Shown: positions 20,146-57,166 of the stretch, piece after piece
Layout: each line of letters opens with the position of its first letter
Numbering within the stretch: the first letter of the stretch is position 1
Assembly (NCBI GenBank): GCA_951406725.2
Contig: OX597832.1
Span: 36,580,001 to 36,644,000, forward strand
Direction: 5' to 3'
Source: Octopus vulgaris
Lineage: Eukaryota
Length of the DNA stretch: 64,000 nucleotides
Translations under genes and position numbers: made by a program
Notes under the pieces: model-generated
Told to the model about the DNA's origin: nothing
The model's input: the letters and a program-made list of their open reading frames with translations, nothing else
The model's database searches: none

Positions 20146-20972
20146 TCATCATCATCATCATCGTTTAACATCCGCTTTCCATGCTAGCATGGGTTGGATG
20201 ATTTGACTGAGGTCAGGCGAACCAGGCTCCAATCTGATCTGGCAGAGTTTCTACAGCTGGATGCCCTTCCTAATGCCAACCACTCTGAGTGTGTAGCGGG
20301 TGCTTTTAGGTGCCACCAGCACGAGGGCCAGTCAGGCGGTACTGGCAACGGCCACACTCAAATGGTGCTTTTTATGTGCCACCTGCACAGGAGCCAGTCC
20401 AGTGGCACTGGCAATGGCCTCGCTTGAATGTTTTCTCATGTGCCACCAGCAGGCAGTACTATCATCAGCCACGTCATTGATTTTTATTTGTTTACACTTG
20501 TCTCAATAGGTCTTCGCAAGCTAAAGTTCATTATCAAATGAATGAGGGGTACTCATAAGTGAGCTGGTTACACCCCATGTTTGGATGTGCTTTTACCGTT
20601 CCACTGGCACGCATGGCAATCAGGCGGTACTGTCATTGGCCATGTCAGTAATTTCGATTTTGATTTCACTTGCCTCAATAGGTCTTCACAAGCAAGGTTT
20701 ATTGTCCAATGAATGAGGGGTATTCATAAATGGGCTGGGTACACCCACTGGCATAGGCCATGGGCTATGGTCTCACTTGGCTTGTCAAGTCTTCTCAAGC
20801 ACAGCATATCTCAAAAGATCCCGGTCACTAGTCATTGCCTCGGTAAGGCCCAATGTTCGAAGGTCATGCTTCACCACCTCAGTCCAGGTTTTCCTGGGTC
20901 TACCTCTTCCACAGGTTCTCTCAACAGCTAGGGTATGATACTTTTTCACACAGCTGTCCTCATTCATTTGCA
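20146..20972 (-). mobile_element. 5'-truncated RTE LINE (ORF C-terminus, 3' UTR and (GAT)n tail), inverted relative to the adjacent copy
   Basis: ORF 20785-20991(-) MNEDSCVKKYHTLAVERTCGRGRPRKTWTEVVKHDLRTLGLTEAMTSDRDLLRYAVLEKT is homologous to 22560-22762(+). The UTR mirrors 22830-23282. Confidence 0.9.
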
Positions 20973-23282
20973 TGAATGGATGATGGTGCACTTGCTTTTA
21001 GTGATTCTGAAAAGAAAGAGACTTGGAGAAGCCATTATGAAAGACTGCTGAATGTGGAGAATGAATGGGAGGAGGAGAGCCTTCCAAATGTTGACCCAGT
21101 AGAGGGACCAGCTATCCCAATAGACAGTTCCCTAGTAGATAAAGTAATTAAGGGTATGAAGCCAGGAAAAGCCCCTGGCCCATCAGGAATCACTGCTGAG
21201 ATGCTTAAAGCATCTGGTGGTGTGGGCTATGGCTTAGTCACCCGCAATGTAAACCAGGTAGTACATAACAGAGTCATACCCAATGACTGGTGTAGCAGCA
21301 TCATAGTCAGCTGCTACAAGGGTAAAGGTGATGCTCTAGATAGGAATAACTACAGGAGTATTAAACTGCTGGATCAGGTGATGAAGGTCACAGAGAGGGT
21401 CATAGTCCATCTCATTAGATGAGATGCAGTTTGGTTTTGTTTTGGGTAGAAGCACCACTGATGCTATATTCCTGGTTCGACAACTGCAGGAGAAATACCT
21501 AGCTAAAGATAAACCCCTCTACTTAGCTTTTGTGGACTTGGAGAAAGCCTTTGACAGGGTCCCCCAATCCCTTATCTGGTGGGCAATGCGGAAACTGGAG
21601 ATTGACGAATGATTGATAAGGGCTGTACAGGCCCTATACAGAGAGGCCATTAGTAAGGTTAGGATTGGCAACAAGTATAGTGAAGAATTCCGGGTAGAAG
21701 TAGGGGTCCACCAAGATTCAACCCTTAGTCCCCTTCTATTCATCGTAGTCCTCCAGGCAATAACAGAGGAATTCAAGACGGGTTGCCCTTGGGAGCTCCT
21801 CTATGCTGATGACCTAACCCTCATAGCAGAATCACTACCGAAACTAGAAAAGAAATTTTGGGTGTGTAAGCTAGGTTTAGAATCAAAGGGCTTTAGAGTA
21901 AATGTAGCAAAGACCAAAGTTATAGTAAGCAGAAAGGCGAACTCATCACACACACCTTCGGGCAGGTGGCCCTGCTTGATCTGTAGAAAAATTGTAGGTA
22001 GAAACTCCATAAGATGTACCCAGTGTAAGCTATGGATGCATAGGAGGTGCAGTAACATCAAAGGAATATTAACCGATAAGATAACTTTCATGTGGGTTAG
22101 ATGCACAGGGGCAATTGACACCACAGATACTCAGAAAACAAATTCCATCACACTCCAGGGGAAGAAACTAGAAGTAGTTAATAGTTTCCGCTACCTAGGT
22201 GACCAAGTTAGTAGTGAAGGTGGATGCTCAGAGAGTGTCACCACTAGAATACGAATATCCTGAGCAAAGTTTAGAAAGCTCCTACTCCTACTGGTGACAA
22301 AGGGTCTCTCACTCAGAGTGAAAGATAGATTGTACGATGCATGTGTGCAAACTGCCATGCTTCACGGTAGTGAAACATGGGCTGTGACTGCAGAGGACAT
22401 GCGTAGGCTTGAAAGTAATGAAGCTAGCATGATCTGCTGGATGTGTAATATCAGTGTGCACACACGACAAAGTGTAAGCACTCTGAGAGAAATGCTGGAC
22501 ATAAGAAGCATCAGATGTGATGTACAAAAGAAATGTTTGCGCTGGTATGGTCATGTACTGCGGATGGATGAAGAGAGATGTGTGAAGAAGTGCCACTCCC
22601 AAACAGTTGAAGGTATCCGGGGGGGGGGGAGGTAGACCCAGGAAGACATGGGATGAGGTAGTCAAGCATGACCTTCGAACGTTGGGCCTCACAGAGGCAA
22701 TGACGAAAGACCAAGATCTCTGGAGATATGCTGTGACTGCAAAGACCCGAGAAATAATGTGAGTTCATGGCTGCTTCCTGCACTAGTTTTGCATAGCCCC
22801 AATCCATCTGAAGTGCCGTGGATTGCAGAATGACCTGCTGTGCTTGAGGAGACCTATTGAGTCAAGTACATAACATCAACATCAAAATAAATATTAAATG
22901 GAAATTATAGTTGTGATACCTGTGCTGGCGGCACGTAAAAAGCACCATCCGAACATGGTCGATGCCAGTGCCGCCTTGACTGGCTTTTGTGCCGGTGGCA
23001 CGTGACCTGCTGTCCTTGAGGGCACCTATTGAGTCAACTACATAACGTCAACATCAAAATAAATATCAAATGGAAATTATAGTTGTGATATCTGTGCTGG
23101 TGGCACGTAAAAAGCACCCACTACACTCAGGCAGTGGTTGGCGTTAGGAAGGGCACCAGCTGTAGAAACACTGCCAGATCAGACTGGAGCCTGATGCAGC
23201 CTCCTGGCTTCCCAGACCCCAGTCGAACCGTCCAACCCATGCTAGCACGGAAAACGGACGTTAAACGACGATGATGATGATG
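20973..23282 (+). mobile_element. 5'-truncated RTE-clade LINE: disrupted reverse transcriptase ORF (20976-22762), 3' UTR and (GAT)n tail
   Basis: RT motifs GKAPGPSGI, NYRSIKLL, QFGF..GRSTTDAIF, AFVDLEKAFDRVP, GVHQDSTLSPLLF, LLYADDL, FRYLG, HGSETW, LRWYGHVLRM, GRPRKTW. Broken by stops and frameshifts near 21422, 21612, 22263 and 22630. Confidence 0.95.
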
Positions 23283-24957: not shown

Positions 24958-25822
24958 CAGTATACGCAGACATGACTGAATTAAATAGACGCCCTTATAA
25001 TTGTTAAAATTTATTTAAATCTGAAATTATACATTCAGATTATTTATTAATTGTTATAAAGTGAATATTTAGTAGACATGCACCTTGCATTTTTCAATGC
25101 AAGGACCCTGTTAGGCATCTTACTGATCAGATGGCAAATGTTCCCTTGAGGTGTTTCTTGCCAAGTTTCAAGCTGTAATCTCAAAAGAGCTGGCTTTGAA
25201 GATGCTTTCTTGTTCTTTTATGAAATGTCCTATCCATTATGTCCCAGAGGTGATCAGTAGGGTTCATATCTGGTGACTGGTTTGGCTATGGAATCTTTTT
25301 AATGCCATTCTCATCCAACAAATCTGGGCCATTTTAACCATGTGACATGGAGCCCCATCTTCATAAATAAAGACTTCTTTAATCATTTCACCACTGGAGA
25401 AGATTGGAAGGAGTTCTTTCTGCAATATGGATGTACATTTATCTGAGTTTATGTTTCCCTCACACTCCACCTGCTCTGATTGACCATTGCTCTGAATCGT
25501 TCCCCAGACCATCACAGAATAACTGCTGTGTTTCATTGTTGGCTGCAATCTTTTCACATCAAATTCTTGATCACGGAGTCTCGAGACCCACACTCTACTA
25601 CTGTCAGGAAATACAACAAATCTGGACTCATTGGAGAAAATGACAATGTCCCAAAATGCTAGTGGCCTCTCCACCATCTCACTGGCCCAATCTTTTCTCC
25701 ACTTGACATTGACTGGTCAAAGAAGTGGCTTGCTTCTTGCTGCTCTGCCAGAGTAACCAAGTTTGTGGAGCTACTTGACAACTGTTTTGGGACTGATAAT
25801 GTGTTCTGCTATATCATAGTCA
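24958..25822 (-). pseudogene. Tc1-family (DD34E-type) transposase relic, 5' part cut at a SINE
   Basis: ISPKTVVK*LHKLGYSGRAARSKPLL*PVNVKWRKDWA...WDIVIFSNESRF...VMVWGTI...EGNINSDK...YEDGAPCH...PNQSPDMNPTDHLWD...MSTKY. Possible terminus TA|CAGT at 24956-24961. Confidence 0.88.
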
Positions 25823-46536: not shown

Positions 46537-47275
46537 CAAATCTTGCCATTCTTCATGGGTTAGTAAATACTAGCCATGTACTGGTTTAGCTATCTCCTGG
46601 TCTTTTCATAGGCTATGATCCAAAGAAAAGACCAAATTCATAGTTGCACTTCATCTGTCTTTACAGTCTGAGTTCAAATTCTGCTGAGATCGACTCTGCC
46701 TTTCATCCTTTTAGAGACTATTTCAAAGTTTCAAAGGACATTAAGATGGGAAGTCATTTTATTGGCTAAAGTAAGGAGTGGTGAAGAAAGAGACAGAAAG
46801 CTCAAGTGTAGCAGCACAGGATCAATCAATCAGAACAAGGTAAATGGGGAAGAACATGGATAAGGAAGTCATCATGCCTGAAAGAAGGATGTGTGGTGGA
46901 AGAGAAAACACCATTACAAATAGTCTCTAAAAGGATGAAAAGCAAAGTCGATCTCGGCAGAATTTGGACTCAGAATGTAAAGACGGAAGAAGTGCTACTA
47001 AGAATTTTACCTGACATACTAACGATTCCACCAGTTCATTGCCTTAATGATGATGATGATGCTAATAATAAATATAATAATGATTTCTGACATTGGTACA
47101 GAGCATTTGTCACAGAGAGATTCTCTTTTACTGTATCTTTTATCTTTTTACTTGTTTCTTCATCACCACCACCACCATCATTATCCTCTTGGTCTTTTCT
47201 TTGGATTATAGCCTATGAAAAGACCAGGAGATAGCTAAACCAGTACATGGCTAGTATGAAGAATGGCAAGATTTG
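46537..47275. repeat. Near-identical inverted repeat, arms 46537-46635 and 47189-47275
   Basis: TACTAGCCATGTACTGGTTTAGCTATCTCCTGGTCTTTTCATAGGCTAT.ATCCAAAGAAAAGACCAA and its reverse complement; the left arm has a 12-nt insertion. Confidence 0.9.
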
Positions 47276-55152: not shown

Positions 55153-55188
<36 letters not shown>

Positions 55189-55209
55189 ATGTGTGTGTAT
55201 ATGTGTGTG

Positions 55210-55246
<37 letters not shown>

Positions 55247-55311
55247 GTATATATGTATGTATATATATATATATGCGTGTGTGTGTAGGTAGGTATGTAT
55301 ATACATATATA

Positions 55312-55351
<40 letters not shown>

Positions 55352-55373
55352 TGAGTGTGTGTGTGTAGGTATG

Positions 55374-55404
<31 letters not shown>

Positions 55405-55426
55405 CTGTAGGTATGTATATGTGTTT

Positions 55427-56357
55427 ATCATCATTTAACATCTGTTTTCCATGCTGGCATGGGTTGGACAGTTTGACTGAAGACTGTTGAGCCAGATGGC
55501 TGTACCAGGCTCCAATCTGATCTGGCAGTGTTTCTACAGCTGGATGCCCTTCCTAATCCCAACCACTCCGAGAGTGTAGTGGGTGCTTTTACGTGCCACC
55601 GGCACGAGACCCAGTCAGGTAGTACTGGCTATAGCCATGCTCAAATGGTGTTTTTTACATGCCACCTACATAGGCACTCTCACTCAGAGTAAATGGTAGA
55701 CTGTATGATGCATGTGTAGAAACAGCCATGCTACATGGTAGTGAAACATGGGCCGTGACTGCTGAGGACATTCATAAGCTTGCAAGAAATGAAGACCATA
55801 ACCCATGGTATATTCCAGGGATGTAACCAGCCCACTTATGCATACCTTTCCTTCATTGGACACTAAATTCTGCTTGCGAAGACCTGTTGAAGGAAGTGAA
55901 ATCGAAATCAAAATCAAATTTGATGACTGGCATCCGTGCTAGTGGAACGCTAAGAACACCATCTGAGTGTTATCATTGCCAGAGCATCTGACTGGCTTCC
56001 GTGCTGGTGGCATGTAAAAAGCACCATTCGAGCAAAATCATTACCAGCGTCACCTTACTGGCACTTGTGCCGGTTGGACATTAAAAATATTCGGCTGAGG
56101 TCATTGCAAGTGCCACTATACTGGCTACTGTGTAGTTGGCATGTAAAAAACACCATTTCGAGCATGGCTGTTGCCAGTACCACGTAAAAGCACCCACTAC
56201 ACTCTGAGTGGTTGGCATACGGAAGGGCATCCAGCTGTAAAAACACTGCCAGATCAGATTGGAGCCTGGTGCAGCCATCTGGTTCACCAGTCCTCAGTCA
56301 AATCGTCCAACCCATGCCAGCATGGAAAGCGGATGTCAAACGATGATGATGATGATG
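55427..56357. mobile_element. Fold-back RTE composite: minus 3' UTR (55427-55676) plus an internally deleted plus-strand RTE (55677-56357)
   Basis: 55677-55794 encodes LSLRVNGRLYDACVETAMLHGSETWAVTAEDIHKLARNE (cf. 22305-22420). Both ends carry outward-facing (GAT)n tails and are flanked by (TA)/(TG) microsatellites. Confidence 0.9.
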
Positions 56358-57166
56358 TGTGTAAGCATGTATGTGTGTATATATGTATATATATATATGT
56401 TGGTATGTATATGTGTGTGTGTATATATATATATATATGTGTGTGTGTGTTTATATATATATATATATATAGGTGTGTGTGTGTTTATATATATGTAGGT
56501 ATGTATATATGTGTGTGTGTGTGTGTATATATGTGGGTATGTATATGTAGGTATACATATAGGTGTGTTTGTATGTTTGTGTATATATATGTGTGCATAT
56601 GTATCTATATATATATATATATATATAATGTGTGTGTAGTTGTGTGTCTATATATGTAGGGGTTTGTATATATGAATGTATATACACTTGTGTGTGTATG
56701 TATTCTTTTGTTTCATTCACTTGACTATGGTCGTGTGTGTGGGTAGGGAGATGTGTATATGTCTGTGGGGATGTGTATATGTATGTATACATACATACAT
56801 ACATACATACACACATCTCCACATGCATATATATCTATTCCTTCTCAGCTAAATTTCGATATTGGTGAAAGTCTTGAAATATCTAAATTGATTCATACCA
56901 TTCTCTGTTATTGTGTTTGCAAGAACAATTAACTACAATAAGTTTAGATTTTTGTATTTGCTATATTTGTAGGTTTTTTTTTTGTTTTATTTTCCTCCGT
57001 CTTACCTGCTGAAACATACCAAATTTACCAAAGGGCTGTCGAGAAGAATAACAACGATTCTTTACTGTTAGGTTTTTAAAGAATTACGTTTCCAACTGCC
57101 TCCATTATTCCCCAGTGTACTTACAGGACAATTCCATTAATGTCGAATGTCTATGTATGAACGTAT

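Follow-up and report, generated by a model that had tools for sequence, protein, structure and literature searches.

The window, the whole 64-kb stretch of Octopus vulgaris DNA analysed here (G000:C19:36580001–36644000), contains at positions 55427–56357 a fused pair of RTE retrotransposon fragments, which sequence alignment places inside one TA/TG microsatellite array; the left half of the array occupies 55153–55426 and the right half 56358–56627. The minus-strand arm (55427–55674) is the 5'-truncated 3' end of an element, comprising UTR and a short tail, (ATC)2 on the plus strand. It is joined at its 5' end to a plus-strand piece (55668–56357) composed of 127 nt of RT sequence, an internal deletion, the full 3' UTR and a (GAT)n tail. 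The alignment shows no target DNA between the two arms at this 5'-5' junction, where a 7-nt stretch (55668–55674) can be aligned to both arms as imperfect microhomology. The RT-ORF fragment (55668–55794, plus strand) lies C-terminal of the RT core, retains 39 open codons (55677–55793), shows 91–93% identity to genomic copies and corresponds to the same region as the ORF in copies L007 and L010. It ends at a second junction, with AG microhomology (55793–55794, plus strand), where alignment to intact copies reveals the loss of about 336 nt (336 nt against copy L002, 332 nt against copy L004), taking out the C-terminus of the ORF up to the stop codon. The remainder of the arm (55795–56358, plus strand) is 3' UTR and (GAT)n tail, with internal repeats of ~65 nt, a private 26-nt deletion and a 14-nt palindrome. 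The alignment confirmed the anatomy given in the original prediction, a minus-strand UTR fused to a plus-strand RT piece and UTR, and bore out the microsatellite reported on both sides, which is in fact a single array in two halves. The RT piece is likewise present, but is longer than the 118 nt first assigned to it, and the outward (GAT)n tails exist on both arms, although the left one amounts to merely two ATC units.

A rare repeat unit, TAGGTATGTATA/GGTATGTATAT, recurs in both flanks in the same orientation; in sampled genome blocks it was present in 3 and 1 of 257 arrays. We thus conclude that the pair sits within a single array. A bridge between distant sites created by a long-range rearrangement was also considered and was rejected, because one array motif is common to both flanks. 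The 5'-5' junction is bridged by a 72-nt contig from run X3 with zero differences, which speaks against an assembly artefact, with borderline support on the short side (~31 nt). No contig among those listed for runs X2, X6 and X11 bridged the inversion junction, and positions 55797–55832 were uncovered in every run; neither gap is evidence either way. Contigs aligned to the whole unit gave a family-wide signal only, and none took in the arms together with the flanks.

In a small correction to the ~240 nt of pairing originally estimated, the left arm, 247 nt long, is complementary to 220 nt of the right one, with 201 of 219 aligned bases matching (92%) and one 26-nt bulge. The fold energy was −507.7 kcal/mol, versus −279.7 ± 5.5 for 20 shuffled sequences (z = −41.8). 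Rfam searches at E ≤ 1 returned only below-threshold matches to the microsatellite and none in the element body. Judging from its sequence, the composite would be inert repeat DNA that, if transcribed, would form a hairpin of ~220 bp.

The family has the features of a non-LTR retrotransposon. RVT_1 was found in copy L007 (E = 8e-33), and many relatives of ~1050 aa carry PF03372 and PF00078, so that RT and an AP-type endonuclease occur in one ORF, with the endonuclease seen in relatives and not in the fetched copies; the nearest protein match that bears a name comes from an octopus. There is also a simple-repeat tail, and many copies are 5'-truncated, extending for a median of 252 nt beyond the motif end on its upstream side (n = 94). 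The family ORF contains a C-terminal W-[FY]-GHV motif, which we take to be an RTE-type feature. We kept RTE as a provisional label on the basis of the architecture, this presumed motif and the original prediction. A conserved 14-nt palindrome lies just before the (GAT)n tail, at 56312–56325 in the window and in every tail, and likely represents an RT-recognition stem. Between the RT core and the C-terminal domain there is a PHD/C1-like cysteine region (L007:1172–3121, minus strand; window 21613–22260), which is below the Pfam cut-off here; PF00628 is common in relatives. Compared by features, the family resembles the RTE-clade elements described in PMC9115989 and PMC2887409, including the octopus RTE-2_OV, in its single ORF, frequent partial 3' copies and simple-repeat tail; an association of RTE-clade 3' fragments with microsatellites is also reported in PMC2887409. 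Unlike the RTEs as described there, the present family has a repeat-bearing UTR of ~550 nt and the internal PHD/C1-like cysteine region.

A larger head-to-head RTE pair, aligned for comparison only, lies at 20146–23282 (minus strand, 20146–20972; plus strand, 20968–23282). Its arms belong to different subfamilies (139/179 in the RT), and its junction was spanned by no other match among the best 40 scored. The two composites have different junctions, in agreement with the independent origin claimed for them. The window also contains another inverted pair from a different repeat (46634–47007), with 90-nt arms that are 90% complementary and 194 nt apart, and a frame of 150 aa (25264–25716, minus strand) that by eye resembles a decayed Tc1-like transposase and had no Pfam match at E ≤ 0.01.

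Genome searches were centred on each junction of the 55427–56357 unit and on both, and the best 40 of 1,336–1,692 candidates were scored in each, giving a lower bound on the number of copies. Among these best 40, only the locus itself spans either junction: the other 39 matches stop at the 5'-5' junction, and the internal-deletion junction had no second copy. As a spanning copy should rank first, scoring the best 40 is still informative on this point. Around the unit we found no target site duplication (TSD) longer than a 5-nt TGTGT, itself within the microsatellite. The ends of the unit are (GAT)n LINE tails and not terminal inverted repeats (TIRs) of the transposase superfamily screened for, and the Merlin-like TIR motif used in this screen is absent from the 64-kb window. 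The original prediction held that the unit resembles a MITE and that multiple matches to its exact junctions would make it mobile. With no second copy of the junctions in the matches scored, no dispersed copies sharing ends and internal junctions among the best 40 of each search, no TIR of the screened type and no TSD beyond TGTGT, this reading fails; by the searches run, the locus is single-copy, a one-off rather than a novel mobile element.

Genome-wide, the copies closest to the left arm show 89–92% identity to it, about as the right arm does. Of 289 unselected copies, only one matches the left arm as closely as its partner does, and 17 reach 89%. The arms are also age-matched, at 6.9 and 6.5% from their nearest copies. 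Nevertheless, at two lineage markers (55491/55471) the left arm reads C-C and the right arm T-T. Both are non-CpG sites and are tightly linked in the family (250/17/16/54; 376 copies), also among the 60 near copies (18/3/2/24; linkage p = 7e-8). Across 217 columns, both arms depart in the same way from the subfamily majority at 4 positions, 3 of which are CpG-type sites; this is no more than expected, and no inverted flank was found at the locus. Opposite linked haplotypes point to two source lineages and exclude a simple snap-back, in which both arms would come from a single template; the fold-back that had been proposed is contradicted at both markers. From these sequence comparisons, the arms are two different RTE copies from closely related source lineages.

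To place the locus in a genomic context, head-to-head pairs were counted genome-wide by the 14-nt palindrome near the tail, in spacing bands of 230–260, 306–336 and 400–430 nt; the spacing of the locus itself (~850 nt) is not countable by this pattern. At 400–430 nt, the whole 2.8-Gb genome contains 49 head-to-head pairs versus 84 tail-to-tail and 213 tandem pairs, with ~34 head-to-head pairs expected from body exclusion alone, before nested cases; the other two bands yielded 28 and 39 head-to-head pairs. Head-to-head pairs are thus not enriched at the 400–430 nt spacing, and the genome-wide bias towards this orientation implied by the original prediction did not appear in that band. Counts in random 100-kb blocks were too uneven for pair statistics, because 20 of 29 elements fell in one block and three blocks had none. 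The density of RTEs over the eight blocks (L021–L100) is itself very uneven, with 0–1 elements in six blocks and 6 and 20 in the others.

We examined the sequence of 106 of the 116 head-to-head loci, the other 10, with one very short arm, being counted as not fused. The 106 loci, which include a few uncollapsed segmental duplicates, divide into 29 fused pairs, 32 pairs separated by a short stretch of microsatellite and 45 with spacers of other kinds; in 8 of the 29 fused loci, an RTE remainder outside a tail indicates nesting. Fused non-nested pairs amount to 21 of 108, where a strict 12-nt window predicts 8.9 (p = 0.001), a 25-nt window 16.7 and a 37-nt window 23.4; the boundaries of the pairs have an error of 10–25 nt. 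Since the expected count hinges on the boundary window, an excess of fused pairs is possible and not firm. Mean arm identity was 86.7% for 23 fused pairs, compared with 85.7% for tail-to-tail pairs (34 of the 84 were retrieved and 30 of these scored) and 85.1% for 400 pairs drawn at random. An identity of 95% or more is reached by the arms of 4 of 15 non-nested fused pairs versus 15 of 400 random pairs (p = 0.003; p = 0.027 versus other pairs). Age concordance, by a noisy nearest-copy measure, did not separate fused, microsatellite-spaced and spaced pairs (n = 13, 20 and 18), and arm ages are discordant in some fused pairs (distances to nearest copies of 7.7 versus 17.4% in L118, and 4.2 versus 9.1% in L123).

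Several individual pairs stand out. L167 (G000:C11:25901522–25901978), one of these four, in which the arms are 98% identical, 25 nt of flank are inverted and ~100 nt are internally triplicated, is the best candidate for true fold-back synthesis, and L120, L136 and L195 are similarly clean fusions with arms 97–98% identical. Even these near-identical pairs have few rare shared variants (0–1 each in L120, L136, L167 and L195), so that a fold-back class is suggested and not proven. L142 (G000:C8:76821225–76821512) consists of two RTE tails that match at 103/103 positions on either side of a TA spacer, forming a perfect palindrome, and is either a very recent duplication or an assembly artefact. 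In all, head-to-head fusions recur by several routes, namely nesting, insertion into a shared microsatellite target and deletion, with a small class of near-identical pairs besides. The recurrent process suspected from two cases in the window is therefore real in the sense that fusions are repeated across the genome, but not as one mechanism.

Two fused pairs, L140 and L233, have common flanks, and a family search from them retrieved 30 loci, 28 of them distinct (L284–L313), with the same AT-rich arm joined to the same RTE tail in at least 23. By comparison with the 972-nt natural half in L293, this family is a palindrome of ~1.95 kb whose arms each hold the RTE tail in their innermost ~270 nt; examples are L293:1080–2957 (G000:C4:98.13 Mb) and L298:414–3029 (C1:219.08 Mb). 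Tails are kept on both sides in eight loci (L284, L286, L293, L297, L298, L301, L306 and L312), and most other copies show one-sided centre deletions with differing breakpoints. The ends of the family begin with GGTA, and an 8-bp TSD is perfect (8/8) in two of the four loci with both ends detected, L290 and the two-tailed L298, as against 3/8 in L292 and 0/8 in L293. According to PMC8101967, Merlin elements have GG ends and TSDs of 8–9 bp. The palindromic family is, from these sequence features, likely a non-autonomous Merlin-like foldback transposon. The MITE idea, not supported at the locus, does fit a different family elsewhere in the genome, a DNA transposon that would spread inverted LINE tails and that offers a natural series of palindrome centre deletions.

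For the origin of the fusion at 55427–56357, we favour, as about an even bet, two insertions into one hotspot array followed by a microhomology-guided deletion between the 5' ends. This account builds on what the locus contains: arms of two lineages within one array, directly joined over a 7-nt overlap, and junctions that are single-copy among the matches scored. The RTE tail would prime on TA/GT-rich DNA, so that the array could be struck repeatedly and in both orientations; two copies from related source lineages would insert one after the other, head to head, and the DNA between their 5' ends would be lost by microhomology deletion, leaving the 7-nt overlap. The loss may have been a target-site deletion when the 5' end of the second copy was joined, or a later deletion at the centre of the inverted repeat while this was still young and nearly identical, and the 336-nt internal deletion may have arisen likewise. 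Palindromic inverted repeats undergo centre deletions, and the many centre breakpoints among copies of the palindromic TIR family indicate that such events are frequent in this genome. The opposite alleles at the linked markers and the rare unit shared by the flanks support two insertions; the 32 of 106 head-to-head loci with a short microsatellite spacer indicate that repeated insertion in one array is common, the age-discordant arms of L118 and L123 that a sequential route exists, and the counts of 49, 84 and 213 pairs are consistent with it in that head-to-head pairs are not in excess. Against it stand the unusual closeness and matched ages of the arms, with no target remnant between them, and the possible excess of fused pairs together with that of arms at least 95% alike, all of which also fit a single event. 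Such an event, in which two RNAs were primed at both ends of one break in the array and microhomology linked the truncated cDNAs through their 5' breakpoints, is a substantial possibility that we nonetheless consider less than probable. The locus does consist of two distinct truncated copies, joined 5' to 5' with their tails outward; the arms agree in subfamily group and in age, the junction is direct within one array, a second microhomology deletion lies inside the plus arm, and somatic L1 bridges provide a precedent (10.1101/2024.08.27.596794). The L1 cases described there, however, bridge distant sites in inversions and translocations, whereas the flanks are here one array; no TSD is readable beyond TGTGT, and head-to-head pairs do not exceed tail-to-tail ones. 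The closeness of the arms favours the two-RNA event, but similarity-driven deletion predicts the same and accounts equally for the enrichment of alike arms. A bolder version, that germ-line RTEs of octopus prime two RNAs at one break and join the cDNAs 5' to 5' in one step, with the locus as a fossil, and that one such pair became the centre of the spreading palindromic Merlin-like transposon, is offered as speculation that we think rather unlikely to hold in full.

The other explanations fare much worse than these two. A snap-back, in which the 3' end of the cDNA folds on itself and copies its own tail, as for R2 insertions, agrees with the short arm being a subset of the long arm, with the imperfect homology at the turn, with the R2 snap-back junctions described in PMC11371274 and PMC11204384, and with the small class represented by L167. 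The opposite haplotypes, the unremarkable number of shared differences and the lack of an inverted flank at the locus largely refute it, and make it very improbable; it could be rescued only if one of the arms had since undergone gene conversion by a copy of another lineage. Equally doubtful is a nested insertion, one copy having entered the other in antisense and the outer remainder having been lost later: nesting does explain 8 of the 29 fused loci, but both flanks are here microsatellite, with no RTE remainder beside either tail. A mobile MITE-like composite using LINE tails as TIRs could draw on the terminal inverted arms, the small size and the existence in the same genome of a TIR family that does carry head-to-head RTE tails; with neither junction spanned by another match scored, no TSD beyond TGTGT, and the TIR motif of that family missing from the window, we give it hardly any credence.

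Should the two-RNA route be real, both strands of an RTE target would be primable by separate particles in the germ line, which would bear on the question of second-strand priming in non-LTR retrotransposition. Octopus shows heavy A-to-I editing, and head-to-head tail pairs would supply long hairpins in such an animal. Our literature search, with subscription journals largely outside it, brought up no description of two-tailed RTE fusions, of MITEs bearing LINE tails or of TIR elements centred on such tails. The locus is a new instance of a known junction type. The somatic human bridges described in 10.1101/2024.08.27.596794 consist of two inverted, 5'-truncated L1s that meet at their 5' breakpoints and each end in a poly(dA) tail; the octopus pair likewise comprises two distinct 5'-truncated, inverted copies with joined 5' breakpoints and outward tails. 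Those L1 bridges are presented as two synchronous insertions that link distant sites, with heteroduplicated TSDs, whereas the octopus locus belongs to an assembled genome, is RTE-type and occupies one array, and its two copies may have been inserted successively. For Alu elements, PMC3215922 describes a local excess of head-to-head pairs and the loss of inverted pairs, which is comparable in the close spacing of inverted retroposons and their instability; that excess concerns full-length elements with 24–36-bp spacers, whereas the two octopus copies are truncated and have no spacer between them. R2 snap-back products resemble the locus in that the element's sequence recurs in antisense at the 5' junction, but, as described in PMC11371274 and PMC11204384, they copy one cDNA, and the octopus arms differ in lineage haplotype. 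The sole likeness to MITEs and to the non-autonomous Merlin elements of PMC8101967 is the terminal inverted arms, since the locus has no copies among the matches scored, no GG-terminal TIR and no 8–9-bp TSD.
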